Shown here piece after piece: positions 803-61,953 of a stretch of DNA of 64,000 bases; positions within the stretch are counted from its first letter, which is position 1; each line of letters starts with the position of its first letter. The notes below the pieces were generated by a model. It saw only the letters and a program-made list of their open reading frames with translations. It made no database searches and had not been told where the DNA came from. Source of the stretch: an uncultured Anaerolineaceae bacterium (lineage in GTDB: Bacteria > Chloroflexota > Limnocylindria > Limnocylindrales > CSP1-4); NCBI GenBank assembly GCA_964483405.1, contig CAZABC010000002.1:108355-172354 (forward strand), given 5' to 3'. The position numbers and the translations under genes are program-made.

Positions 803-2068
803 TCAGACGAGGAAGCGTCGCTCGGCGTCGGGCTCCCGGAGCGCCGGTCGGTCGATCCCGAACGCCGCGATCTCGCCAGCCGCCGGGGTCGCCGCGTCGA
901 GGGCGAGCTCGGCGGCGATCGCGCCGAGCGCGGACGCGAACTTGAAGGCGTGGGCAGCGCCCTGCAGGACGACCACGCCCGGCGCCTCCGGCAGCCGATC
1001 GACGATGAAGTCCCGGTCGGGCGGCATCGTGTAGAGGCATGTCTTCGTGGACAGCCGCGGCCCGAGGGCGCCCGGCAGCCGGGCGGCCAGGAAGGCCTCG
1101 ACCCGGGCGAGCGCGTCCGGGTCGGGCTCGAAGGTCCTCGTCGAAGGGCTCACCTCGCGACCACCGACGTCCTGGGCGGCCTTGGGACCCGGCTCGCCGT
1201 ACGTCGGGAACCCGTAGAACGACGGGTCATCCATCCAGATCCAGACCGGGAAGCGCTCCGGCGCGAACGCGGCGGCGTCGGGCGCGGCGAAGTAGGTGAC
1301 CTGTTCCTGGGTCACCGTCAGCGGCAGGCGCCGCTCGAAGGAGGCGAGCAGCTCGTTCGTCCAGGCATCGGCCGCGATCACCACCGAGCCGGCCCGGTGG
1401 ACCGACCCGTCGACGAGGACGAGGTCGTGGCCGCCCGCGATGGGCCGGATCGCCGTGACCGGGCTGCCGGCGAAGAGCGTCGCGCCGGCGGCCCGGGCGA
1501 GCCGCCGGTGGGCGGCGTTGCCGCGGTACGGATCGGCGATGCCCGCGTCCGCCTGGTGGAGGGCGACCGTGTCGTCGGCGAGGCGCCACGCCGGCCAGCG
1601 ACGCATGACCTCGCGTGCGTCGAGGCGCTCGAACGGGACGCCGGCGGCGGTCATCGCCTCGACGTAGTCGGCTTCGCCGATCGCCGCGCCGACGGGGAAC
1701 AGGTCGAGGCCGCCGGTCAGCGTCACGATCCGCTCGGCGGGCCCGAGCCCGGCGGCCGCCTCGACCTCGGCCCAGCTCGCGTACGCCCGCGCGGCGAGCC
1801 GGACGTAGTCGGCCCGGTGGTACGAGCGGCGGATGATCCGCGAGTGGTCGGCCGAGGCGCCGTTCGCGTGGCCCAGCGCGAACCGCTCGAACCCGGCGAC
1901 CCGGTCGCCGAGCCGCGCCGCCAGCCACCAGGCCGCCGCCGAGCCGAGGGCGCCGAGGCCGACGACCGCCGCATCCCACTCGCGCCGGCCGGTCCAGCCG
2001 GCCGCCGACTCGCCCGGCGGCTCGGGCGGCTGGCCGGCGCCGGGGCCGGGGCCGGTGGATCCGCTCAC
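803..2068 (-). CDS. Monomeric sarcosine oxidase / N-methyl-L-tryptophan oxidase (SolA/MSOX-like) flavoenzyme
   Basis: VVGLGALGS FAD motif, GASADHSRIIRRSY, CLYT flavinylation-type Cys, C-terminal HAFKFA. Confidence 0.85.
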   Translation of the reverse strand: MSGSTGPGPGAGQPPEPPGESAAGWTGRREWDAAVVGLGALGSAAAWWLAARLGDRVAGFERFALGHANGASADHSRIIRRSYHRADYVRLAARAYASWAEVEAAAGLGPAERIVTLTGGLDLFPVGAAIGEADYVEAMTAAGVPFERLDAREVMRRWPAWRLADDTVALHQADAGIADPYRGNAAHRRLARAAGATLFAGSPVTAIRPIAGGHDLVLVDGSVHRAGSVVIAADAWTNELLASFERRLPLTVTQEQVTYFAAPDAAAFAPERFPVWIWMDDPSFYGFPTYGEPGPKAAQDVGGREVSPSTRTFEPDPDALARVEAFLAARLPGALGPRLSTKTCLYTMPPDRDFIVDRLPEAPGVVVLQGAAHAFKFASALGAIAAELALDAATPAAGEIAAFGIDRPALREPDAERRFLV

Positions 2069-3279
2069 CCGGCGGGTCCCGCGTCGAGCGCCGCCGGTCC
2101 GAGCCGCTCGGCGACATAGCGGCGCATGTCGAGCGAGAGGTCCTCCATCGGCGCGTAGTAGCCGACGTCGAAGCGACTCGACGACATCCCCGACTGGACG
2201 GCCTCGCAGACGACCCAGTCCTGGCGGTTCACGAGATCCCAGAAGTCGACCGCGTCGGACGGGTCGAAGTTGGGCCTCGCCATCTCGTCGGGGTGGAACA
2301 GGAAGTCGACGACGACCCGGGTCCTACCAGGGCCGTCCGGCAGGAGCATGAAGGCCGCCGCGTGGTCGGCCGAGAGGCTCAGCATCAGGTTCGGATAGAC
2401 GAGCTCGCCCTTGTGGCGGACCTGCTCCTCGGGCGAGAGGCCCGGGAAGGGCGACCGGTCGCTCGTGCCGGTCATCGTGAACGTCCACGTCCCGTCGGCC
2501 TGCGGCACGCCGTCGTCCCAGTCGAGGTCGACCCCGCCGCCCTCCCGGAAGGCCGGGACGATCCGGCACAGCTCCGGGTGGACGCCCGCGCAGTGGTAGC
2601 ACTCGTTGTAGTTCTCTTCGACGACCTTCCAGTTCGCGGCGACGTCGTAGACGATCCGACGGGCGATCCGGAGGTCGGCCAGCGGGTACCGGGCGACGCG
2701 GCCGGGGATCGGCCCGAGCTGCGCCGCGAGCCGCCCCGCCGGGTCGTCGAGGGCGGCCGGGTCGAGGCTGGCGAAGACGAAGCCGCCCCAGGTCGCGACG
2801 GCGACGGGGTGGAGCCCGAACCGTTCGCGCGGGAAGTCGGGTGCCTCGCCGAGGAAGGGCGCGCCGCGGACGGGTCCGTCGAGCTCGTACGTCCAGGAGT
2901 GGTATGGGCAGCGGATGACCCCGCGGAACGTCCCGGCCGGGCCCGGCGGCCCGGCGCAGGTGTCGATGGCGGGTGGGTCGAGGACGAGCCGGCTGCCGCG
3001 GTGGCGGCACAGATCGACGTGGGCGCGCAGCTCCCCGGTCCGGGTCCGCACGACGAGGATCCGCTCGCCGGCGAGATCGACATGGAGGTAGTCGCCGGCC
3101 GCCGCGAGGCTCTCCTCGCGTCCGACGAGGACGAGCTCGCGATGCCAGATCGCGGCCCGCTCGGCGTCGTGGAACGCCGGATCGAGGTAGGCCCGTCGCG
3201 GCAGCGACGGCTCGATGGCCGTCCGGGCCATCCGGTTCGGCGACGGCTCGTAGGTCGGCTCGACGGCGCGGTCGGTCAC
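2065..3279 (-). CDS. Rieske non-heme iron oxygenase alpha subunit (choline/betaine/carnitine monooxygenase-like)
   Basis: Rieske ligands CRHRG...CPYHSW and mononuclear Fe site ENYNECYHCAGVHPEL. Start chosen at GTG 3279 with GAGGA RBS; 4-nt overlap with the downstream gene. Confidence 0.88.
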   Translation of the reverse strand: MTDRAVEPTYEPSPNRMARTAIEPSLPRRAYLDPAFHDAERAAIWHRELVLVGREESLAAAGDYLHVDLAGERILVVRTRTGELRAHVDLCRHRGSRLVLDPPAIDTCAGPPGPAGTFRGVIRCPYHSWTYELDGPVRGAPFLGEAPDFPRERFGLHPVAVATWGGFVFASLDPAALDDPAGRLAAQLGPIPGRVARYPLADLRIARRIVYDVAANWKVVEENYNECYHCAGVHPELCRIVPAFREGGGVDLDWDDGVPQADGTWTFTMTGTSDRSPFPGLSPEEQVRHKGELVYPNLMLSLSADHAAAFMLLPDGPGRTRVVVDFLFHPDEMARPNFDPSDAVDFWDLVNRQDWVVCEAVQSGMSSSRFDVGYYAPMEDLSLDMRRYVAERLGPAALDAGPAG

Positions 3280-3379
3280 GGTGGGTCCTCGGATCGACGG
3301 GGCGGGACGCTCCGGCATGGGTAGCACACGGCCGCGGCCCGCGCCAGCGGGGTGCGAGGACCGCGACGGATCCCGAGAC

Positions 3380-25143: not shown

Positions 25144-25914
25144 TCAGCCGACGGTCGCGCCGAGCCGGACCGAGATCGCCGCGGCCGCCTCGCGGACCTG
25201 GGCGGCGAGCTCCGGGACGCGGCGGGGGGTGAGCCGGAAGGTCGGGCCCCAGATGTCGACGGCCGCGATGACCTGGCCGCGGGCGTCGTGGACCGGCGCT
25301 GCGACCGCGTTGAGCCCGAGCTCGAACTCGCCGATCGCCGTCGCGTAGCCGCGGCGCCGGATCCGGGCGAGCTCCTCGAGGAGCGGCTCGAGCTCGACGA
25401 TCGTCCGCTCGGTGTAGCGGGGCAGGCCGCGCTTCACGATCCGGACGACCTCGCGCTCGGCGAGGGCGGCCATGACGACCTTGCCCGAGGCGACGCAGTG
25501 GAGCGGGGTCGCCCGCCCGGTCCAGTCGCCGACGGCGACGAGGTTCGGGCCGTCGGCCTGGGCGACGCACAGGAGCTGGTCGCCGTCGAGGACGCCGAGG
25601 CTGGTCGTCTCGTGGGTGAGCCGGGCGAGCCGCTCGAGCTCGGGCGTGGCGATCCCGCGCAGGTCGAGGGTCCGCTCGGCGCGCTCGGCGAGCCGGATGA
25701 CGACGAGCCCGAGGCGGTACTTGCCGGTCTCGTCGTCCTGCTCCACCAGCCCCCGTCGCTCGAGGGTCGCGAGGAGCCGCGAGGCGGTCGACTTGTGCAG
25801 GCCGAGGCGGCGGGCGAGCTCGGTCACGCCGGCCGCACCGGGGCTCTCGCCGAGGGCGAGGAGCAGCGCGGCCGCCCGATCGACCGAGCGGACCGCGTTA
25901 CCGTCGATCGCCAT
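25144..25914 (-). CDS. IclR family transcriptional regulator
   Basis: VRSVDRAAALL, HTH GVTELARRLGLHKSTASRLLATL, ETTSL, LHCVASGK, IRRRGYA, AVAAPV. Confidence 0.93.
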   Translation of the reverse strand: MAIDGNAVRSVDRAAALLLALGESPGAAGVTELARRLGLHKSTASRLLATLERRGLVEQDDETGKYRLGLVVIRLAERAERTLDLRGIATPELERLARLTHETTSLGVLDGDQLLCVAQADGPNLVAVGDWTGRATPLHCVASGKVVMAALAEREVVRIVKRGLPRYTERTIVELEPLLEELARIRRRGYATAIGEFELGLNAVAAPVHDARGQVIAAVDIWGPTFRLTPRRVPELAAQVREAAAAISVRLGATVG

Positions 25915-25925
25915 CGCGCCCCCCG

Positions 25926-27344
25926 TCAGGCATCGACGAGCCGATCGGGATCGGCCGGCGCCGCGCCGCTGTAGGCGGCTTCGGTGGCATGCGGCAGGGC
26001 CACGCCGTGGGCCCGGGCCTCGAGCGCCGCATGGAGCGAGTCGGCGAAGATCGAGACGACCCGGTCGACGGTGTCGCCGCCGGCGTGCGCCTCGCAGACG
26101 AACCACGGCTCGCGCGAGTCGGGCTCCGGCATCGCGCCGCGGGCGTGCATGCCGACCGCGATCGCGTCGTAGAGCTCGTGATCGGTCGTCGCCCAGTCGC
26201 GGTACTCGGTCGCGACCTCCTCGCGGAACATGATCCCGAACATCGACGGGTGGCCGGTGAAGTGATAGGCGAGACCGGTCGGGTCGAGGACCGCCTTGAG
26301 CCCGGCCTGGATCGACTCGCCGGTGCGCCGGATCGTGTCGAGGGCCGACGTGTCGCGGATGATCTCGAGGGTCCGCACGGCGGCCGCCGCCGCGATCCGG
26401 TTGCCGGCGTAGGTCCCGCCGTGGGAGACCTTGTCGGGCAGGACGCTCATCACCTCGGCCGTCCCGCCGAACGCGGCGGCCGGGTAGCCGTTGCCCATCG
26501 CCTTGGCGTAGGTCGCGAGGTCGGGCGTGATGCCGAAGAACTCGGCCGCGCCGCCGCGGGCGAACCGGAAGCCCGTCTTGACCTCGTCGAAGATGAGGAG
26601 GATCCCGAACTCGCGCGTCAGGGCCCGCATCGCCTGGTGGAAGCCCGGCTGCGGCATGATCCCCTGAGCATTGCCGAGGACCGGCTCGACGATGATCGCG
26701 GCGATCTCGTGGCCCCGCTCCTCGAAGAGCCGCCGGAGGCGCTCGATGTTGTTGTAGCGGGCCGGGATGATGGTGTCGGCCACCGGCCCCGGGATGCCGC
26801 GGCCCCAGGTGAGCCGGACGGGGTTCTCCGCATCGCCGAGCTCGCCCATGTCGTTCGGCGCGACCGAGATGAGGGCGTAGTCGTGGACGCCGTGGTACTG
26901 GCCCTCGAACTTCACGATCTTGTCGCGGCCGGTGTATGCCCGGGCGACGCGCATCGCGTGCATCGTCGCCTCGGTGCCCGACACCGTCATCCGGGCGCGC
27001 TCGACCCAGCCGGTCAGCTCGCAGACGAGCTCCATCGCCCGGACCTCGTCCTCCGACGTCAGCGAGAAGCTGACGCCGCGTCGCATCCGCTCGTTGACGT
27101 GGTCGTCGACGCGATCGTCAGCGTGGCCGAGGATGACCGGGCCATAGCCCATCCGGAGGTCGATGTACTCGTTGCCGTCGAGGTCCCAGACCATCCCGCC
27201 CTTGCCGCGGTCGATGTAGACCGTGTCCTCGCCCCAGGCGCGGAAGTTCGAGTCGGTGCCGCCCGGCAACGTGCCGAGCGCCCGGCGGTACATCGCCAGC
27301 TGCACGTCTCGCCGGAGTCGGGGGGTGGCAGGCTCGGTGGCCAT
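25926..27344 (-). CDS. Class III PLP aminotransferase, glutamate-1-semialdehyde aminomutase-like (substrate uncertain)
   Basis: DLDGNEYIDLRMGYGPVILGH, VSGTEATM, FEGQYHG, FDEVKTGFR, PLP lysine in TYAKAMGNGYP, HGGTYAGN. Confidence 0.85.
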   Translation of the reverse strand: MATEPATPRLRRDVQLAMYRRALGTLPGGTDSNFRAWGEDTVYIDRGKGGMVWDLDGNEYIDLRMGYGPVILGHADDRVDDHVNERMRRGVSFSLTSEDEVRAMELVCELTGWVERARMTVSGTEATMHAMRVARAYTGRDKIVKFEGQYHGVHDYALISVAPNDMGELGDAENPVRLTWGRGIPGPVADTIIPARYNNIERLRRLFEERGHEIAAIIVEPVLGNAQGIMPQPGFHQAMRALTREFGILLIFDEVKTGFRFARGGAAEFFGITPDLATYAKAMGNGYPAAAFGGTAEVMSVLPDKVSHGGTYAGNRIAAAAAVRTLEIIRDTSALDTIRRTGESIQAGLKAVLDPTGLAYHFTGHPSMFGIMFREEVATEYRDWATTDHELYDAIAVGMHARGAMPEPDSREPWFVCEAHAGGDTVDRVVSIFADSLHAALEARAHGVALPHATEAAYSGAAPADPDRLVDA

Positions 27345-27420
27345 GGGGCTCCTCTCGGCCGTCGGTCGACGGGCGCGCGCGACGGGACTTCGTCGTCGCT
27401 GTCGCGCCTGTGCGAACGGC

Positions 27421-27481
27421 CGTTGCGCATGGTGGAACGACCGATGCGCCGATGCTGCCACAGCGCCGGAGCGGGCGTCAA
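27421..27481 (-). promoter_or_regulatory. Putative promoter and IclR-type operator of the aminotransferase-IclR operon
   Basis: TTGACG (27481-27476), 18 nt, TG-n-CAGCAT (27457-27452). Imperfect palindrome CGTTGCGCATGGTGGAACG at 27421-27439 just downstream of the predicted start site. Confidence 0.4.
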
Positions 27482-27567
27482 CACGCCCCCGGCGGCTCGA
27501 CGCGGGCGGGCGCCCGGCAGCCGCCCGCTGCAGCCGACGGCGCGAGGCCCGACACTTGTCGGCGCCC

Positions 27568-27906
27568 ATGCTCCCGCCGTACGCCTACCTCCTGGCGATC
27601 CTCGTCTCGTTCGCCGGCATGGTCGTCATCGACCGTCGCTGGCGGCTCGGTGTCGTCGGCCGCCGCCTGGTCGTCTCGATCGTCGCCGTCGAGGTCGCCT
27701 TCCTCCTCGTCTTCGACGCCCTCGGGTCGGCCCGCGGCTGGTTCGCGACGAACCCCGACCTCGTGGTCGGCCTCGGGCCGCTCGGCATCCCGCCCGAGGA
27801 GCCGCTCCTCCTCGCCTTCCTGGCGACGTTCGCGGTCGTCGTCGACCGGATCGCCGGCCGGCTGACCGGCGAGGATCCTGCGCCCGACGGGGGCTCGGAC
27901 GGCTGA
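27568..27906 (+). CDS. Heterodimeric lycopene/C50 carotenoid cyclase subunit (CrtYc/Ye-like)
   Basis: YAYLLAILVSFAGMVVIDRRW...FDALG...GIPPEE; 112 aa, hydrophobic. Confidence 0.8.
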   Translation: MLPPYAYLLAILVSFAGMVVIDRRWRLGVVGRRLVVSIVAVEVAFLLVFDALGSARGWFATNPDLVVGLGPLGIPPEEPLLLAFLATFAVVVDRIAGRLTGEDPAPDGGSDG

Positions 27907-28202
27907 TGCCCGAGTACACGCTCGCCTCGATCGTCGCCCTCGGCCTGGCCGCCGTCGGCGCGCTGGTGGCGGGCCTGCACCGCCGGCGGGCGACCTGGCT
28001 GACATTGGCGGTCTTCGGCGCCTTCACCGTCGTCTTCGACATCGTCCTGACCGGCCTGCCGATCGTGACGTACGGCGACGGGACGACGACCGGCATCGCG
28101 ATCGGGCCGATGCCGGTCGAGGACCTCCTCTACGGCTGGGCCCTCTGCCTCACCGCGCTCGTCGCCTGGGCCGTCGCCGGACGGCGCCGCGCGACCCGCT
28201 GA
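27906..28202 (+). CDS. Heterodimeric lycopene/C50 carotenoid cyclase subunit (CrtYd/Yf-like)
   Basis: YTLAS...TVVFDIVLT...GPMPVEDLLY; TGATG overlap with the upstream gene. Confidence 0.8.
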   Translation: MPEYTLASIVALGLAAVGALVAGLHRRRATWLTLAVFGAFTVVFDIVLTGLPIVTYGDGTTTGIAIGPMPVEDLLYGWALCLTALVAWAVAGRRRATR

Positions 28203-28206
28203 CCCG

Positions 28207-30240
28207 GTGACCCGCCTGCGCGAGCTCCTCTTGGCGAGCCGGCCGCTGTCGTGGATCAACACCGGCCTGCCGTTCCTCGCGGCCGCGTACGAGGTCGACC
28301 GGGCGCTCACCCCGCTCGGGCTGCTCGGGTTCGCCTACTTCCTCGTGCCGTTCAACCTGCTGATGTACGGCGTCAACGACATCTTCGACTACGCCTCGGA
28401 CCTGGCGAACCCCCGCAAGCGCTCGCTCGAGGGCGGGATCGTCCCGCCGGATCGCCGCCGGGCCACGTGGGCTGCGATCGCCGCGACGAACCTGCCGTTC
28501 CTCGCCCTCCTCGGCTGGCTCGCGCCACCGGCCGGCTTTGCCGCCGTCCTCCTCGCCGCCTTCGCGGCGCTCGCCTACTCCGCGCCGCCGCTGCGGACGA
28601 AGGTCCGGCCATTCCTCGACTCGCTGACGAGCGCGTCGCACTTCGTCCTGCCGGCCGTCGCGGGGTTCCTCGTCGCCGGCCTCGACCCGGCGGCGCTGCC
28701 GTGGGCGCTGATCGTCGGCTTCACCGCGTGGGGCGTCGCGAGCCACGCCCTCGGGGCGATCCAGGACATCGCCTACGACCGGGCCGCGGGCATCGGCTCG
28801 ATCGCCACGGCGATCGGGGCGCGGCCGACGGCCCTGCTCGCCCTCGCCGGCTACGGCATCGCGATCGGAGCCGCCCTCTCGTACGGGGGCCTCGCTGCGG
28901 TCGCCGGTCTCGCCCTCGCGACGTACCTCCTCCTGCCGTTCGCCGTCCTCTGCCGGCCCGACGAGCCACAGGCGCGCCGCGCCTGGCGCTCGTTCCTCGG
29001 GCTCAACCTGCTCGTCGGCTTCGTGCTGACCCAGCTCCTGCTGCGGCACTGGGGGCTGGTGACGCTGCCGCTCGGGGCCGCACTCGGAGCCGCCGCGGTC
29101 GCAGCCGCCGGGACGAGCCTCGTCCAGCTCCTCGCGACGGTCGTCCTCCTCCGCCGATCACGCGCGTCGGCGCTGGCCGGCGCGGGGACCGCTGCCCTGC
29201 CCCGCCTCAGCGTCGTCGTCCCATGCCGGGACGAGGCCGTCCGGCTGCCGGCCGTCATCGCCGCGCTCGCCGCGCAGGACCACCCCGACCTAGAGATCGT
29301 CGTCATCGACGACGGCTCGACCGACGGGACGGCCGATATCGCCCGACGCGAGCTCGCGGCCCGGCGGCCCACGGGTGGCGATCGCGACCGGGTCGTCGTC
29401 GCGCCGCCGATGCCCGCCGGCTGGACCGGCAAGAGCTGGGCGTGCGACGTGGGCGCTCGCACGGCGATCGGCGGGCATGTCCTCTTCCTCGACGCCGACA
29501 CGCTCCCTGCGCCGAGTGCGCTCCGGACGCTCCACGCGATCGCCCGCGGCTCGCGGGCGGCCCTCGTCTCGGGCGTGAGCGCGTACGCGATGCCGACGAC
29601 GACCGAGCGGGCGCTCGTGCCGGGCTTCCCGCTCGTCATGTACGGGCTCGTGCCGGTCTGGGCGGCCATCCTCGGGCGGGGTCGGAGCGGCTACCGATTC
29701 GCCTACGGCCCGCTCCTGCTCGTCGAGGCCGCCGCGTACCGCGCGGCCGGTGGGCACGCCGCGGCGCCCGCCTCGGCGCGCGAGGACCTCGACCTCGCCG
29801 CGACGATCGGCCGGGCCGGCGGCGAGGTCCGGCTCGTCGCCGCGGCCGACCTAGCGGCGACCCGCCACTACCCCGATGGGACCGGGGCGCTCGCCGCCTG
29901 GCGACGGGTCGCGGTGGCGTACGGCGGCGACTCGTTCGCCACGATCCTCGCCCTGCTCGCTGTCGAGGCGCTCGCCTGGCTGCTGCCGCTCGTCGCCCCG
30001 CTCGCCGGCGCGGCCCTCGGGGACCCGGACCTGCTCGGCGCCGGCCTCGTCGCGCTCGGGGCGCTCGTCGCCTTCCGGGTCGGCCTGGCCGTCGCGGAGC
30101 GGCAGCCGCTCGCCGCGATCGTCTGGCACCCGATCACCGTCGGTGCGACGATGGCGGCCCAGGCCGCCAGCCTCGTCGACGCCGTCCTCGGTCGTCCGGC
30201 GATCTGGCATGGGCGCTCGCTCGAACGGAAGGCACCATGA
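28207..30240 (+). CDS. Fusion: lycopene elongase-like prenyltransferase (CrtEb/LyeJ, UbiA family) plus family 2 carotenoid glycosyltransferase (CrtQ/CruC-like)
   Basis: N-terminal half: SRPLSWINT, NLLMYGVNDIFDYASD, YSAPPLRTK, AIQDI. C-terminal half: SVVVPCRDE, DDGSTDGT, GWTGKSWAC, FLDADT, EDLDL. One continuous 677-aa ORF. Confidence 0.85.
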   Translation: MTRLRELLLASRPLSWINTGLPFLAAAYEVDRALTPLGLLGFAYFLVPFNLLMYGVNDIFDYASDLANPRKRSLEGGIVPPDRRRATWAAIAATNLPFLALLGWLAPPAGFAAVLLAAFAALAYSAPPLRTKVRPFLDSLTSASHFVLPAVAGFLVAGLDPAALPWALIVGFTAWGVASHALGAIQDIAYDRAAGIGSIATAIGARPTALLALAGYGIAIGAALSYGGLAAVAGLALATYLLLPFAVLCRPDEPQARRAWRSFLGLNLLVGFVLTQLLLRHWGLVTLPLGAALGAAAVAAAGTSLVQLLATVVLLRRSRASALAGAGTAALPRLSVVVPCRDEAVRLPAVIAALAAQDHPDLEIVVIDDGSTDGTADIARRELAARRPTGGDRDRVVVAPPMPAGWTGKSWACDVGARTAIGGHVLFLDADTLPAPSALRTLHAIARGSRAALVSGVSAYAMPTTTERALVPGFPLVMYGLVPVWAAILGRGRSGYRFAYGPLLLVEAAAYRAAGGHAAAPASAREDLDLAATIGRAGGEVRLVAAADLAATRHYPDGTGALAAWRRVAVAYGGDSFATILALLAVEALAWLLPLVAPLAGAALGDPDLLGAGLVALGALVAFRVGLAVAERQPLAAIVWHPITVGATMAAQAASLVDAVLGRPAIWHGRSLERKAP

Positions 30241-31799
30241 GCACGACCGCCGCACCCACCACCACCACTACCACCGACCCGGCCGGCCGCCGGCCGTCGG
30301 CGAGCGCGTCGCGCCCGCGGGCCGTCGTCGTCGGCTCGGGGATCGGCGGCCTCGCCGTCGCCATCCGCCTCCTCGCCGACGGTCACGACGTGACCGTCCT
30401 CGAGGCCCGCGCCACGGTCGGCGGCCGGGCGTCGCGGATCCGCGACGCCGGCTTCACCTGGGACACCGGCCCCTCGCTCATCACGATGCCGTGGCTCTTC
30501 GACGAGCTCTTCGCCCTCGGCGGCAGCCGCTTCCGCGACGAGGTGGTCCTGCACGAGCTCATGCCCGGCTACCGGATCCACTGGACCGACGTGGACGGTC
30601 GCGTCCAGCCCCGACACGTCGACTTCTCGAGCGACGTCGACATCCTCCGGTCGGAGGTGGCGAAGTTCTCGACGGTCGACGCGGGCCGGCTCGACGACTT
30701 CCTCGCGGCGAGCAAGCGGATCCACGAGGAGGGTGTCCTCGTCGCCGGCCGGAAGCCGTTCCTCCGGCTGACCGACTTCGTCGGCCTCGTCCCCCGGATG
30801 GTCGGGATGAACGCGATCCGGAGTCTCGACGCGTTCGTCGGGAGCTACTTCAAGGACCCCCGGGTCCGCCAGGTCTTCGACTTCCACTCGCTCTTCATCG
30901 GCGGCGACCCGCGGCGGGTCCCGGGGATCTACGCGGCGCTCGTCTACCTCCAGGTCGCCGACGGCATCTGGTACTCCGAGGGCGGTGTCTACAGCGTCAT
31001 CGAGGCGATGGCCCGGATCATCGAGCGGGGCGGCGGCCGGATCGTGACCGGGGCGCCGGTCGAGCGGATCGTCCATCGCGGCGGGCGGGCCGTCGCCGTC
31101 CGGACCGCGTCCGGCGACGAGATCCCGGCCGACGTCGTCGTGAGCAACACCGATGTGACGGCCCGGCCGCACCTCCTGCCCGACGCGCCCGAGCCGCTGC
31201 CGTGGCGGGCCCGCCGCTTCCGGACGACGATGAGCGCCTTCCTGCTCTACCTCGGGACGAGCCGGCGGTTCCCGCAGCTCCTCCACCACACGCTCATCGT
31301 CGGGTCCGACTACCACGGCTTCATCCGCCAGGTCACCCGCGAGCGGCGGCTCCCCGAGTCCCTCAGCTTCTACATCCACGCCCCCGCCAGGACCGAGCCC
31401 GGGATGGCGATCCCCGGCGGCGACGCGCTGACCGTCCTCCTGCCGGTCCCGAACCTCGACGCGGACGTCGACTGGGACGAGGCGGGCCCGGCCCTCCGCG
31501 ACCGCGTCGTCGACGCGCTCGAGACCTTCGGGATGGCGGGTCTCCGCGACTCGATCGTCGCCGAGCACGCCTGGACGCCGCGCACGTTCCGCGACGAGCT
31601 CGGTGCGCCCGACGGCAACGCCTTCGCGATCGAGCCGGCGCTCCACCAGTCGGCGTACTTCCGCCAGCCGAACCGGGACCGCGCGGTCGCGGGGCTGTAC
31701 TGGGTCGGTGGTGGGACGCACCCGGGCGCGGGGATGCCGGGGACGCTGATGACGGCCGAGGTGACGGCCGGCCTCGTCCGCGCGGCCGCCGGTCGCTGA
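30237..31799 (+). CDS. crtI: Phytoene desaturase
   Basis: VVGSGIGGLA, GFTWDTGPS, MSAFLLYLG, YWVGGGTHPGAGMPG. The real start is the ATG at 30237, not the track's 28251. Confidence 0.93.
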   Translation: MSTTAAPTTTTTTDPAGRRPSASASRPRAVVVGSGIGGLAVAIRLLADGHDVTVLEARATVGGRASRIRDAGFTWDTGPSLITMPWLFDELFALGGSRFRDEVVLHELMPGYRIHWTDVDGRVQPRHVDFSSDVDILRSEVAKFSTVDAGRLDDFLAASKRIHEEGVLVAGRKPFLRLTDFVGLVPRMVGMNAIRSLDAFVGSYFKDPRVRQVFDFHSLFIGGDPRRVPGIYAALVYLQVADGIWYSEGGVYSVIEAMARIIERGGGRIVTGAPVERIVHRGGRAVAVRTASGDEIPADVVVSNTDVTARPHLLPDAPEPLPWRARRFRTTMSAFLLYLGTSRRFPQLLHHTLIVGSDYHGFIRQVTRERRLPESLSFYIHAPARTEPGMAIPGGDALTVLLPVPNLDADVDWDEAGPALRDRVVDALETFGMAGLRDSIVAEHAWTPRTFRDELGAPDGNAFAIEPALHQSAYFRQPNRDRAVAGLYWVGGGTHPGAGMPGTLMTAEVTAGLVRAAAGR

Positions 31800-31806
31800 G
31801 GCGCGG

Positions 31807-32703
31807 ATGGCGGCGGACCCGGCGCGCCCGTCGTCGAGGGACCCCGCGGTCGAGGCGCTGCTGCCGGAGGCCCGGCGGACGATCGAGCGGGTCGCCCGGA
31901 CGTTCGCCATCGCCGCCCGGCTCCTGCCACGATCGGTCCGCGAGGACGTCGACCTCCTGTACCTCGTCCTCCGCGGCCTCGACGACCTCGTCGATCTCGA
32001 GGCCGAGCGGCCCAACGACCCGGCCGCCGCGGCGCGGCTCGCCGCGGTCGAGGCGTGGGCGGCCGGAGCGCCGCTCCCCGACGGCCCGACGCGCGAGACG
32101 AGGGTCCTCGCCGAGCTCGCCCGGCGACACCCCGCGCTGCCGCGCGACGCGGTGGCCGACTTCACGGCCGGGATGCGCCAGGACCTCGCCGGGACGGTCA
32201 TCGAGACCGAGGCGGACCTCGACACGTACGCCTACCGGGTCGCCGGGACGGTCGGCCGGCTGATGGCGGCGATCCTCGGGGCCGAAGGGCCCGAGGCCGA
32301 CGCCGCCGCCCGCGCGCTCGGGATCGCGATGCAGCGGACGAACATCCTCCGTGACGTCGACGAGGACCTTGCCCGGGGTCGCTGCTACCTGCCGACCGAG
32401 ACGCTGCGGGCCCACGGGATCACCTCGCCAGACGAGCTCCGGACCGCCGACCGGCGGACCCTCCTGCGCGACGGGATCGCCAGGGCCGACGCCGCGTACG
32501 ACGCGGGGCTGCGGGGCATCGTCCATCTCCGCCACGGCCGTCGCTCGATCGCCGCGGCCGGTCGGATGTACCGCGAGATCCTCCGCCAGATCGAGCGGGA
32601 CGGGCTCGGTGCCCGGCGCCCGCACCGCGCCGCCGTCGCCCGCTGGCGCAAGGTCGCGCTCATCCTCGGGGCGATGGTCGCCCCCACCGCGGGCGACCGA
32701 TGA
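31807..32703 (+). CDS. crtB: Phytoene synthase
   Basis: TFAIAARLLP, LDDLVD, YAYRVAGTVG, LGIAMQRTNILRDVDED, GRCYLP. Confidence 0.93.
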   Translation: MAADPARPSSRDPAVEALLPEARRTIERVARTFAIAARLLPRSVREDVDLLYLVLRGLDDLVDLEAERPNDPAAAARLAAVEAWAAGAPLPDGPTRETRVLAELARRHPALPRDAVADFTAGMRQDLAGTVIETEADLDTYAYRVAGTVGRLMAAILGAEGPEADAAARALGIAMQRTNILRDVDEDLARGRCYLPTETLRAHGITSPDELRTADRRTLLRDGIARADAAYDAGLRGIVHLRHGRRSIAAAGRMYREILRQIERDGLGARRPHRAAVARWRKVALILGAMVAPTAGDR

Positions 32704-33338
32704 TCCCCGACCCGGCGAGCGCCGGGGTCCCCGACATCGGTCTCCCGGCGACCATCGCCCTGCTCGCCATCGGCTGGCTCGTCGGATCGTTCCCGAGCGC
32801 GATCGTCGTCGGGCGGGCCCGCGGGTTCGACGTCACCAGGGACGGCGACGGCAACCCCGGCTCGGCGAACGTCTGGAAGCTCGCCGGGCCAGCCGCCGGG
32901 ACGACGGTCTTCCTGCTCGACATCGCCAAGGTGGTCCTGCCTGGGCTGGCCGGCTGGGTCGTCGCCGGATGGTGGGGCGCCTGGGCCGGCGCGATCGGGG
33001 CGGTCCTCGGGGCGATGCGACCGGCGTGGCCGGCCTGGCCGGGCGGGCGGGGCGTCAACGCCGGCGCGGGCGCCGCGATCGTCCTCGCTCCGACGGCCGC
33101 GGCGCTCGGCGTCGTCGCGTTCGCGGCGACGTACCTGGTCGCCCGGAGCCGAGTGGCGGCCGTCAGCGCCGGCTTCGTCGCCTACCCGATCGCGCTCGTC
33201 GCGCTGACCGTCCGCGAGCCCGACGACATGTGGCCGATCGCCGGGATCGGCGTGCTCTACCTGCTCCTCGTCGCCCGCTACGTCGCGACCGACCGCGCCC
33301 GCCGCGGCCGACCCGGGGGTGCGCCGCCCGGGCCCTGA
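32700..33338 (+). CDS. PlsY (DUF205)-like membrane acyltransferase, atypical active site, encoded in the carotenoid operon
   Basis: GSFPSA, GDGNPGSAN, DIAK, GGRGV; ATGA overlap with crtB. Confidence 0.75.
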   Translation: MIPDPASAGVPDIGLPATIALLAIGWLVGSFPSAIVVGRARGFDVTRDGDGNPGSANVWKLAGPAAGTTVFLLDIAKVVLPGLAGWVVAGWWGAWAGAIGAVLGAMRPAWPAWPGGRGVNAGAGAAIVLAPTAAALGVVAFAATYLVARSRVAAVSAGFVAYPIALVALTVREPDDMWPIAGIGVLYLLLVARYVATDRARRGRPGGAPPGP

Positions 33339-59682: not shown

Positions 59683-59760
59683 CCGCACGCCCGGGGGGAT
59701 GTCTCATGTCATCCCTGCGCGCCGCACGCGGCGCTTCATGTGACGTTCAAGGAGGCGGTG

Positions 59761-60948
59761 GTGGGTCAGCGGATCCTGGTGCTCGGCGGCGACGGCTATC
59801 TCGGATGGCCGACGGCGATGGCGTTCTCTCGCCAGGGCCATCGCGTCGCGGTCGTCGATAACTTCGCGAAGCGCCAGTGGGAGCTCGAGCTCGGCGTCCA
59901 GCCGCTCTTCCCGATCCCGACGCTCCACGAGCGGGCCCGCGCCTGGCGCGAGGTGAGCGAGAACGAGATCGAGGTCCACGTCGGCGACCTCGTCGACTAC
60001 GACTTCGTCGACGCGCTGCTCGCCGACTTCCAGCCGGACGCGATCGTCCACTACGGCCAGCAGCCGTCGGCGCCGTACTCGATGATCGACGTCAAGCACG
60101 CGACGTACACCCAGCGCAACAACGTCGTCGGCAACCTCAACCTGATCTTCGCGATCCGCGACCGGGCCATCGACACGCACCTCGTCAAGCTCGGCACGAT
60201 GGGCGAGTACGGGCAGCCGAACATCGACATCGAGGAGGGCTACCTCGAGGTCGAGCACAACGGCCGCAAGGAGACCTTTCTCTATCCCAAGCGCCCCGGC
60301 TCCTGGTACCACCTGAGCAAGGTCCACGACAGCCACAACATCGAGTTCGCCTGTCGCATCTGGGGGCTCCGGGCGACCGACCTCCACCAGGGCGTCGTCT
60401 ACGGCGTCGAGACCGACGAGTCGGCCCTCGACCCGCGGCTCGCGACCTCGTTCCACTACGACGAGGTCTTCGGGACCGCACTCAACCGCTTCTGCGTCCA
60501 GGCGGCGATCGGCCACCCGCTGACCGTCTACGGCAAGGGCGGCCAGACCCGTGGCTACCTCAACATCCGCGACACGATCGCCTGCGTCGGCCTCGCGGTG
60601 GCCAACCCGGCCGACCGTGGCGAGCTCCGCGTCTACAACCAGTTCACCGAGCAGTTCAGCGTGCTCGAGCTGGCCGAGAAGGTGAGGGTCGCGAGCGAGC
60701 ACCTCGGCTGGAGCGTCGAGGTCGCCCACACGACGAACCCGCGCAAGGAGCTCGAGGAGCACTACTACAACGCCAAGCACTCGAAGCTCGTCGAGCTCGG
60801 CCTCCAGCCCCGGCTGCTCAACGAGGAGCTCATCGACACGATGCTCCTCAAGATCAAGGCCAACGAGGCCCGGATCGACCGGGCGACGCTCGTCCAGAAC
60901 GTCCGCTGGGTGCCCGAGCATCTCGCCCAGCCCGTCGGCGCCCGCTGA
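59761..60948 (+). CDS. sqdB: UDP-sulfoquinovose synthase
   Basis: GGDGYLGWPTA, QQPSAPYSMID, HLVKLGTMGEYG, YHLSKVHDS, RATDLHQGVVYG, FGTALNRFC, GHPLTVYGKGGQTRG. Start placed after AAGGAGG. Confidence 0.9.
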   Translation: MGQRILVLGGDGYLGWPTAMAFSRQGHRVAVVDNFAKRQWELELGVQPLFPIPTLHERARAWREVSENEIEVHVGDLVDYDFVDALLADFQPDAIVHYGQQPSAPYSMIDVKHATYTQRNNVVGNLNLIFAIRDRAIDTHLVKLGTMGEYGQPNIDIEEGYLEVEHNGRKETFLYPKRPGSWYHLSKVHDSHNIEFACRIWGLRATDLHQGVVYGVETDESALDPRLATSFHYDEVFGTALNRFCVQAAIGHPLTVYGKGGQTRGYLNIRDTIACVGLAVANPADRGELRVYNQFTEQFSVLELAEKVRVASEHLGWSVEVAHTTNPRKELEEHYYNAKHSKLVELGLQPRLLNEELIDTMLLKIKANEARIDRATLVQNVRWVPEHLAQPVGAR

Positions 60949-60975
60949 CCGCCGGCTCCGTCCGGTAGCGGGCCG

Positions 60976-61953
60976 ATGCCCCGCACCGTCCTCGTCACCG
61001 GCGGCGCCGGGTTCATCGGCTCGAACCTGGCCCGCCTCCTCGTGGACCGGGGCGACCGCGTCCGGGTCTTCGACGACCTGTCGATCGGCTCGCTGCGCTA
61101 CCTCGACGGGATCCCCCACGAGCACGTCCACGCCACGCTCGCCGACCGAGCGGCCGTCGAGGCCGCCGTGCGGGGCGTCGACGCCGTCGTCCATCTCGCG
61201 GCGCGAGCGGGCATCCCCGACTCGGTCACCGACCCGCTCGGCACGTTCGAGGCGAACGTGACCCAGACGCTCGGCCTCCTCGACGCCGCGCGTCGCTCGG
61301 GGGCGACGCGCTTCGTCTTCGCCTCCTCGAATGCCGCCGCGGGCGACCACGAGCCGCCGGCCGACGAGACCGACCTCCCCCACCCCGTCTCGCCGTACGG
61401 CGCCTCGAAGCTCGCCGGCGAGGCCTACCTCCAGGCCTACGCCGCGACGTACGGGATGGCCGCCTGCTCGCTCCGCTTCTCGAACGCCTACGGGCCGAAC
61501 TCGCTCCACAAGAAGAGCGTGGTCGCCGCCTGGCTCCGGGCCGCGCTCGCCGGCCGCCCGGTCGTCATCCACGGCGACGGCGAGCAGACGCGCGACTTCG
61601 TCTTCGCCGGTGACCTCGCGGCCGCCGTCTGCGCGGTCATCGACGCGCCCGAGGAGGACGTGAGCGGCGAGCTGTTCCAGGCGGGCACGGGTCGCGAGAC
61701 GACGATCAACGGCCTCGTCGAGGCGATCCGGGTCGCGCTCGGGCGGCCGATCGAGGTCGTCCACGAACCGGGCCGGGCGGGCGACGTCCGACGAAACGTC
61801 AGCCGGGTCGACAAGGCGGCCCGGATCCTCGGCTACCGGGCGGCGGTGGCGCTGGAGGACGGACTGGCGACGACGGCTCGCTGGTACGAGGCCGCCCTGG
61901 CCGACCCCGAGCTGGCGGCCATCCGACCGCACGCGGCGTCCGGCTCCGAGTAG
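60976..61953 (+). CDS. NAD-dependent nucleotide-sugar epimerase/dehydratase (GalE-like)
   Basis: VTGGAGFIGS, YGASK, NAYGP, GDGEQTRDFV. Confidence 0.9.
   Translation: MPRTVLVTGGAGFIGSNLARLLVDRGDRVRVFDDLSIGSLRYLDGIPHEHVHATLADRAAVEAAVRGVDAVVHLAARAGIPDSVTDPLGTFEANVTQTLGLLDAARRSGATRFVFASSNAAAGDHEPPADETDLPHPVSPYGASKLAGEAYLQAYAATYGMAACSLRFSNAYGPNSLHKKSVVAAWLRAALAGRPVVIHGDGEQTRDFVFAGDLAAAVCAVIDAPEEDVSGELFQAGTGRETTINGLVEAIRVALGRPIEVVHEPGRAGDVRRNVSRVDKAARILGYRAAVALEDGLATTARWYEAALADPELAAIRPHAASGSE

Follow-up and report, generated by a model that had tools for sequence, protein, structure and literature searches.

A natural fusion of a putative lycopene elongase with a family 2 glycosyltransferase in a carotenoid operon of apparent Chloroflexota origin

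C50 carotenoids and their glycosides have, to our knowledge, been biochemically characterised only in Actinomycetota and haloarchaea, and elongase, cyclase and glycosyltransferase are usually encoded by separate genes. The elongase CrtEb of C. glutamicum (cg0717) is reported to yield flavuxanthin (Krubasik et al. 2001). Actinobacterial C50 clusters described in the literature have the canonical layout crtE-crtB-crtI-cyclase-[cyclase-elongase], and LbtBC of Dietzia sp. CQ4 is a natural fusion carrying a cyclase subunit on the elongase N-terminus. The glycosyltransferase CrtX (C. glutamicum cg0730, M. luteus, Dietzia), which presumably glycosylates the C50 hydroxyls, is a separate gene in all described C50 clusters. 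LyeJ is the elongase/hydratase of the haloarchaeal bacterioruberin pathway. Here, we analysed a stretch of 64,000 nt (contig CAZABC010000002.1, positions 108,355 to 172,354; hereafter the window) for a gene at 28207..30240 (+) in which a UbiA-type prenyltransferase is joined in frame to a family 2 glycosyltransferase (GT2). Its product, an integral membrane protein, is probably a true bifunctional enzyme of C50 carotenoid glycoside synthesis, combining elongation with glycosylation of the resulting hydroxyl.

The fusion gene is a single uninterrupted open reading frame (ORF) of 677 aa with a GTG start. The window has a G+C content of ~75 % and chance long ORFs in all six frames, among them a 1182-aa ORF that overlaps the fusion ORF in another frame; ORF length alone is therefore no evidence for coding. 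Three independent tests establish the fusion frame as the coding frame along its whole length. Pfam recognised UbiA (PF01040, residues 24-264, E 1e-21) and, at residues 332-555, two GT2 families (PF00535 Glycos_transf_2, E 1.6e-19; PF13641 Glyco_tranf_2_3, E 2.5e-15). The NCBIfam model NF009608 'prenyltransferase' matched residues 3-281 with 289 bits, the curated cutoff being 217. The G+C content at third codon positions (GC3) was 0.88-1.00 in the fusion frame for every 150-nt interval from 28168 through 29968, including the junction region 29050-29200, and switched frame only at the start of crtI. The frame is likewise open over both halves in the related loci L001-L013 and L016-L021. An assembly or sequencing artefact that joined two adjacent genes was considered, because the source is probably a metagenome assembly and the neighbouring genes of several related long-read loci from metagenome-assembled genomes (MAGs; L011, L014, L015, L023) show frameshift-like breaks. 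GC3 periodicity, however, runs in frame through the junction, the same fusion recurs in over 100 independent sequences of various phyla and projects, and the ancestral proteins lie only ~7 residues apart with exactly matching topologies. On the GC3 frame analysis and the recurrence in independent assemblies the artefact was rejected; its probability is negligible. At the four loci with breaks (uncultured Chloroflexia, MFD-series isolate names), crtB, crtI or one of the two halves, GT2 or UbiA, is matched by tblastn in adjacent pieces. These split matches look like frameshift errors or pseudogenes, and read-through ORF calls in these loci should be treated with caution.

The UbiA or lycopene-elongase domain covers residues 3-281 (28213..29049; this and all following parts of the fusion gene on the + strand) and was modelled with nine transmembrane (TM) helices, the N-terminus inside and the C-terminus outside. 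Its first Asp-rich motif, N57-D58-x-x-D61-x-x-x-D65, reads N57-D58-I-F-D61-Y-A-S-D65 (28375..28401); the second, D187-x-x-x-D191, reads D187-I-A-Y-D191 (28765..28779) and is placed in a predicted cytoplasmic loop, both motifs lying in loops predicted to be inside. A junction of seven residues (282-288, WGLVTLP; 29050..29070), predicted to be outside the membrane, leads into a linker TM helix (289-324; 29071..29178) that DSSP assigns as a helix in the model and that equals the N-terminal anchor of the GT2 module. The GT-A catalytic domain (~331-560; 29197..29886), which accounts for the PF00535/PF13641 matches, is predicted to be cytoplasmic. It is followed by a C-terminal helical membrane region (574-661; 29926..30189), recognised by modelled helices (577-604, 607-630 and 641-661) and hydrophobic windows, so that the whole GT2 membrane half spans residues ~331-661. 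We placed the join at residues 282-288 because unfused UbiA homologues stop at query position ~279-282 and those of the standalone GT2 type set in at ~289-305. The standalone GT2 homologues include the linker helix, and their alignments extend to query position ~670, thus covering the C-terminal helices. The lowest conservation in the whole fusion protein was found directly after the linker helix, at residues 321-330.

AlphaFold2, run with a 68-sequence family alignment, modelled the whole two-domain chain with a mean pLDDT of 94.0 and a pTM of 0.91. The layout comprised the nine UbiA helices, the long helix 289-324, the α/β domain of GT-A type and the C-terminal helices 577-661. Loops on the side of both Asp-rich motifs contain 11 lysine and arginine residues, those on the opposite side one. 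In solved UbiA structures the Asp-rich motifs are located on the cytoplasmic face. Since the motif side is rich in positive charges and cytoplasmic in UbiA structures, the N-terminus of the UbiA domain was placed inside and its end outside. The helix 289-324 is predicted to bring the chain back to the cytoplasm, the site of the nucleotide-sugars, and both active sites would then be cytoplasmic. The two proteins are thus joined simply end to end: the ancestral topologies matched and about seven residues suffice. Sequence and fold searches of the PDB yielded no chain with both domains; matches covered either the GT2 half or the UbiA half alone. A preliminary description of this DNA had proposed one uninterrupted ORF of 677 aa with two full domains and had put the junction at 29050-29200. 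The ORF list, Pfam, NF009608 and GC3 bear out the ORF, both domains are complete, correctly named and intact in their catalytic motifs, the motifs it quoted (NDIFD, DDGSTD, GWTGKSWAC, DADT) all occur in the translation, and the junction estimate was accurate, with homologue boundaries now narrowing the join to nt 29050-29070.

By sequence and context the UbiA half is assigned to the putative lycopene elongases of the CrtEb/LbtC type. Its matches in PDB profile searches were 4tq3 and 4od4. In an alignment of 68 family members D65, D187 and D191 were invariant and N57, D58 and D61 conserved in at least 90 %. An unannotated locus on an Arthrobacter megaplasmid and an Agromyces homologue of the UbiA half were used as anchors, standing in for characterised elongases; its identity to these is 44 % over 295 aa (Arthrobacter C50-locus elongase) and 47 % (Agromyces). 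The Arthrobacter locus reads crtE-crtB-crtI-cyclase-[cyclase-elongase], its crtE and crtB being assigned by position only. The motif sequences YGVNDIFDYASD and AIQDIAYDR are near-identical to those of the unfused actinobacterial homologues. With the elongases of the CrtEb/LbtC/LctC type (represented by NF009608) the window protein shares the UbiA fold, the motifs YGVND-FDY-SD and AIQD---DR and the vicinity of two small cyclase-domain genes, crtI and crtB; it differs by the additional GT2 module of ~390 residues at the C-terminus. The UbiA gene stands in a cluster (27568-33338) with heterodimeric C50-type cyclase genes (named cycA and cycB here), crtI and crtB. A search seeded with the Arthrobacter protein retrieved homologues named only 'prenyltransferase' or 'lycopene cyclase domain-containing protein', and cluster look-ups likewise returned generic names.

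The UbiA half might instead prenylate another acceptor or act on a C40 carotenoid, with the cyclase-domain proteins being C40 lycopene cyclases of the CrtYc/Yd type. NF009608 is named merely 'prenyltransferase', and the window protein scores 289 bits where the actinobacterial anchors reach 469 (Arthrobacter) and 447 (Agromyces); the cyclase family PF18916 takes in C40 cyclases as well, and CycA remains under its model cutoff. We regard this alternative as quite unlikely, because the score exceeds the curated equivalog cutoff, the identity to elongases from canonical C50 clusters is 44-47 % with near-identical motif sequences, the order cyclase-cyclase-UbiA is the C50 signature, and relatives carry an LbtBC-like cyclase-elongase fusion in the same protein. 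LyeJ belongs to the same UbiA subfamily in a broad sense. No CruF-type Pfam match was present among the scanned predicted genes of the window and crtI was the sole desaturase-family gene found; unlike the LyeJ context, the window has cyclase-domain genes in place of cruF/crtD. Two other related NCBIfam 'prenyltransferase' models stayed below their cutoffs for the window protein.

In the GT2 half the acidic motifs are intact: D368-D369 (in D368-D-G-S-T-D373), D429-A-D431 and R525-E-D527, each conserved in at least 90 % of the 68 aligned family members. Further motifs present are G405-W-T-G-K-S-W-A and W565-R-R. The best Foldseek matches were membrane GT2s (PcManGT 6yv7, BcsA and hyaluronan synthase; probability 1.00), PcManGT 6yv7 being the best of them and also a top match by sequence. 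Among NCBIfam models the best matches were the hopene-associated HpnB (TIGR03469; 132 bits, cutoff 379) and the myxol 2'-O-glycosyltransferase CruG (NF045692; 78 bits, cutoff 600). As judged from these comparisons the GT2 half is a relative of the isoprenoid-lipid GT2s, outside the CruG and HpnB families. CruG, HpnB and PcManGT share its architecture, in which the GT-A domain stands between an N-terminal TM helix and C-terminal helices, but none of them is fused to a prenyltransferase. CrtX, compared with the GT2 half by description only, would have the same role. Pantoea CrtX is a GT1 enzyme with a different fold.

Because no curated carotenoid-glycosyltransferase model was passed, the acceptor of the GT2 half was assigned from its context. 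Of 51 standalone GT2 homologues (28-40 % identity), about a dozen are encoded within 8 kb of a crtI and/or crtB homologue, in Verrucomicrobiota, Acidobacteriota, Spirochaetota and KSB1. Their neighbours support the existence of a carotenoid-linked GT2 clade. A plasmid search with the GT2 half gave generic GT2s only (32-40 % identity over 60-67 % of the query), and the gene neighbourhoods of a standalone GT2 of Roseiflexaceae (P0233) and of the Agromyces UbiA protein (P0153) contained nothing informative. The UbiA half could elongate lycopene while the GT2 half glycosylates a non-carotenoid, e.g., polyprenyl phosphate or another membrane lipid, the fusion then serving co-regulation or a shared membrane localisation. 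In sequence and fold the GT2 half is indeed no less similar to polyprenyl-phosphate and polysaccharide GT2s than to carotenoid glycosyltransferases, its scores fall below the CruG and HpnB cutoffs, most standalone homologues are without nearby crt genes, and one clade of fusions occurs in a non-carotenoid context (clade B, below). Yet the gene lies inside a translationally coupled carotenoid operon conserved across phyla, the dozen or so standalone homologues adjoin crtI and/or crtB, and such clusters in Actinobacteria normally end in glycosylated C50 carotenoids. A non-carotenoid acceptor is thus unlikely, and glycosylation of the C50 carotenoid is the preferred assignment.

The fusion gene is the third of six genes on the + strand. 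The operon starts with cycA (27568..27906), coding for a small membrane protein of 112 aa related to the lycopene-cyclase-domain subunit A (CrtYe/LbtA-like). It matched TIGR03462 weakly (31 bits, cutoff 39.4) and has a syntenic homologue in the loci L001-L015 with 53-65 % identity. The following cycB (27906..28202; 98 aa) encodes the subunit B (CrtYf/LbtB-like), recognised by PF18916 (E 1.2e-10) and by TIGR03462 above the cutoff (48.7 bits), and shares 37 % identity with the cyclase part at the N-terminus of the LbtBC-like protein from Arthrobacter. Downstream of the fusion gene (28207..30240; 677 aa) are crtI for phytoene desaturase (30237..31799; 520 aa; TIGR02734, 485 bits) and crtB for phytoene synthase (31807..32703; 298 aa; Pfam SQS_PSY, E 4e-57), both syntenic in relatives. 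The last gene encodes a PlsY-like membrane protein of the acyltransferase family (32700..33338; 212 aa; Pfam G3P_acyltransf, 91.5 bits), which reached 67.5 bits with the PlsY equivalog TIGR00023 (cutoff 137). It is syntenic in L003-L015 and at the loci L091 and L092, and its position makes it a candidate for a dedicated acyltransferase of the pigment pathway; a literature search for PlsY-like genes in carotenoid clusters found no such role. The genes are separated by gaps of 4-7 nt or overlap by 1 nt or 4 nt (ATGA): the cycA stop and the cycB start share 1 nt, cycB ends 4 nt before the fusion gene, and ATGA overlaps connect the fusion stop with the crtI start and the crtB stop with the PlsY-like start. 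The ATGA overlaps support translational coupling. The operon is flanked by genes for an aminotransferase (divergent) and a DUF885 protein (convergent). Scans of the window for Rfam families, tRNAs, promoters and terminators revealed nothing relevant to the operon.

The order cycA-cycB-fusion-crtI-crtB-PlsY-like is conserved in at least 15 Chloroflexota MAGs. A Dormibacterota locus has the order crtB-cycA-cycB-fusion-crtI behind a marR gene, and the full-length fusions of the Saccharimonadia, which are CPR bacteria (L019-L025), also adjoin crtI/crtB. In comparison with actinobacterial C50 clusters, the host of the window is apparently a member of the Chloroflexota, and its cyclase genes are located upstream and crtI/crtB downstream of the elongase. 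The nearest relatives, from MAGs of Chloroflexota or 'Limnocylindrales', are 61-68 % identical and have the same operon; they suggest a Limnocylindria-like host within the Chloroflexota, and the actinobacterial framing implied in the preliminary description is therefore probably wrong.

The distribution of the architecture was studied in a search space of 5.8 billion proteins. More than 115 clusters (at 90 % identity) of full-length UbiA + GT2 proteins were found, with 43-68 % identity to the query and a length of 660-750 aa. More distant fused forms, with identities as low as ~26 %, came from an exhaustive HMMER scan that covered 1.84 billion cluster representatives. Among 292 proteins fetched from the searches and cluster look-ups, 133 had the architecture UbiA + GT2 and ten cyclase + UbiA + GT2; UbiA alone was present in 44, GT2 alone in 44, and an LbtBC-like arrangement of N-terminal extension and UbiA in 15. 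In species-representative genomes, a set to which the window's own sequence does not belong, the fusion occurred at 51-65 % identity in many independent MAGs labelled Chloroflexota, 'Candidatus Limnocylindrales' or 'uncultured Chloroflexia', and the Saccharimonadia fusions were ~30 % identical to the query. The fused architecture is thus widespread in MAGs of Chloroflexota, Dormibacterota and Saccharimonadia, deposited under generic names such as 'prenyltransferase'. For Patescibacteria of Lake Baikal a lyeJ homologue is on record, with a fusion unmentioned (PMC9948471); this gene may be of the fused Saccharimonadia type. In the triple fusions (P0100, P0108, P0114 and others; ~742 aa) a cyclase subunit precedes elongase and GT2. 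P0114 (742 aa; L091:4826-7054 and L092:3290-5518) is part of loci with the order cycA-[cycB-UbiA-GT2]-crtI-crtB-PlsY-like. Behind this operon lies a divergent pair of genes, one of the MerR_1 family and one with a B12-binding domain. The pair resembles light-responsive regulators of carotenogenesis of the CarH/LitR type.

A neighbour-joining tree together with the gene context separates four fused groups, the clades A to D; the tree is a crude one (BLOSUM distances, midpoint root, no bootstrap) that defines groups only and not the number of fusion events. Clade A comprises the query, the Chloroflexota and Dormibacterota proteins and the triple fusions, with a carotenoid operon and usually both halves intact. 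In clade D (Saccharimonadia), adjoining crtI/crtB, the UbiA half is intact and reaches 331 bits with NF009608. Clade C is represented by P0176 (L082:8001-9995; ~25-31 % identity), which adjoins divergent genes for polyprenyl synthase and phytoene synthase but has lost the UbiA Asp motifs and reaches 166 bits with NF009608, under the cutoff of 217. In the paralogous clade B (P0092, P0136, P0127, P0123 and P0165 at L081, L083, L084, L085 and L086) both UbiA Asp motifs are lost as well and NF009608 remains below the cutoff. Clade B has a conserved neighbourhood of SnoaL_2, CN_hydrolase, Bac_luciferase (a luciferase-like oxidoreductase), the fusion and Amidohydro_1, and crt genes were absent within 10 kb of these fusions.

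Nine acidic residues were scored in 146 fused proteins: 112, including the query, keep all of them, 12 keep the UbiA set only, 3 the GT2 set only and 19 neither. In five clade A proteins (L018, P0119, P0125, P0128, P0135) the GT2 motifs are lost while the domain is kept in frame, and these suggest another explanation for the window protein, in which its GT2 half would be a non-catalytic structural module or scaffold and the elongase alone active. Since the window protein retains every scored GT2 residue (D368, D369, D429, D431, E526, D527 and W565-R-R), as 112 of the 146 fused proteins likewise remain intact, we give this explanation very little probability and keep to a catalytically active GT2 half. 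L018 had been a candidate for a natural unfused control. It was rejected, as in this Chloroflexota MAG (JBJTJV010000065; L018:3440-5503) the frame of the UbiA gene runs on into a degenerate GT2-like half, in which DDGSTD is changed to 'DHAADP' and DAD to 'DAG'; Pfam recognises UbiA only, and GC3 remains in frame. A separate GT2 homologue with 38 % identity is encoded on the other strand (11730-10885) beside a second CrtI-like gene. L018 looks like a case in which the fusion retains a pseudo-enzyme domain and the activity is provided in trans. The persistence of a dead half suggests structurally interdependent modules, consistent with the high pTM.

From homology and operon context we infer substrates, product, order of steps and a possible physical hand-over of intermediates as follows. 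CrtB and CrtI would make lycopene, to which the UbiA half would add C5 units, giving a hydroxylated acyclic C50 carotenoid; the creation of the hydroxyl by the elongase is taken over from the literature on CrtEb. CycA and CycB would probably cyclise the ends of the C50 carotenoid. On the cytoplasmic side, the GT2 half would transfer a sugar from a cytoplasmic nucleotide-sugar onto the C50 hydroxyl, and the PlsY-like protein may, speculatively, acylate the product. The two upstream lycopene-cyclase-domain genes imply an intervening cyclisation, so that elongation and glycosylation, the two fused activities, probably do not follow directly on each other. Direct channelling between them is unproven, and the LbtBC-type and triple fusions make it more plausible that all three enzymes are physically assembled. 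Several observations weigh against a bifunctional enzyme of C50 glycoside synthesis. All fused sequences found come from MAGs or metagenomes, and the function of every family member was read from sequence alone. The GT2 half passes no curated carotenoid-glycosyltransferase model (CruG 78/600, HpnB 132/379). Neither the operon nor the window contains crtE, and no further pigment gene was seen among the scanned window genes. Clade B occurs in a conserved non-carotenoid context, and the architecture alone is therefore no proof of a carotenoid function. On the other side, the domains are identified and their motifs intact, the fusion is real and conserved, its operon context is conserved and the topology is compatible. 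A wider interpretation is possible but rather doubtful: the fusion may be the core of a physically integrated membrane assembly for C50 carotenoid glycosides, the first pathway of this kind outside Actinomycetota and Archaea, in which cyclase subunit, elongase and glycosyltransferase act as one unit, with all three fused in the ~742-aa relatives. The GT2 or the UbiA module would be structurally indispensable and kept in frame after its catalysis was lost, and the PlsY-like protein would be a new carotenoid or carotenoid-glycoside acyltransferase making glycoside esters.

The fusion shares with LbtBC the natural joining of an elongase to a C50-pathway enzyme, but its partner is a glycosyltransferase at the C-terminus, and cycB is a separate gene 4 nt upstream. 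The UbiA match of the window protein begins at residue 3, and an N-terminal cyclase domain is absent. The distinction from LbtBC and from the separate actinobacterial CrtX, drawn already in the preliminary description, agrees with the described clusters. Its suggestion that the architecture may be new holds in one sense only. The literature searched, which extended to C50 pigments in Chloroflexota, Limnocylindria, Dormibacterota and Saccharibacteria and included a comparative-genomics survey that tabulates carotenoid fusion proteins, contained no description of a UbiA-GT2 fusion, and nothing was found on C50 clusters in Limnocylindria or Dormibacterota; the architecture is not rare, however, with 133 two-domain and 10 three-domain fusions in public data. 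It is common but uncharacterised, abundant in public data under uninformative names and apparently undescribed in the literature. No change of paradigm is implied, since both activities and the fusing of carotenoid enzymes were already known. C50 carotenoids, like their glycosides, are rare and of biotechnological interest as pigments, and natural elongase-glycosyltransferase and cyclase-elongase-glycosyltransferase fusions would offer a multi-enzyme module ready for use in engineering. For several uncultured lineages that are abundant in soil and freshwater (Limnocylindria-like Chloroflexota, Dormibacterota and Saccharimonadia), the fusion suggests pigments of the C50 glycoside type. The natural series in which either half is catalytically lost offers a system for asking about the structural interdependence of membrane biosynthetic enzymes.

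Some minor observations concern other parts of the window. ARAGORN reported an 89-nt tRNA-Gly(ACC) at 2544-2632 (-), inside a predicted gene for a Rieske ring-hydroxylating oxygenase (2068-3327, -); Rfam has no tRNA at this position, and the call is probably false. Two genes lie upstream of the operon and divergent to it, one for an IclR-family regulator (25147-26106, -) and one for a class-III aminotransferase (25929-27569, -). Their longest-ORF calls overlap by ~180 nt, and at least one start is probably further downstream than called. Two adjacent genes for NAD-dependent sugar-nucleotide epimerases/dehydratases are located ~30 kb from the operon (59740-61953, +) and are possible suppliers of nucleotide-sugars.

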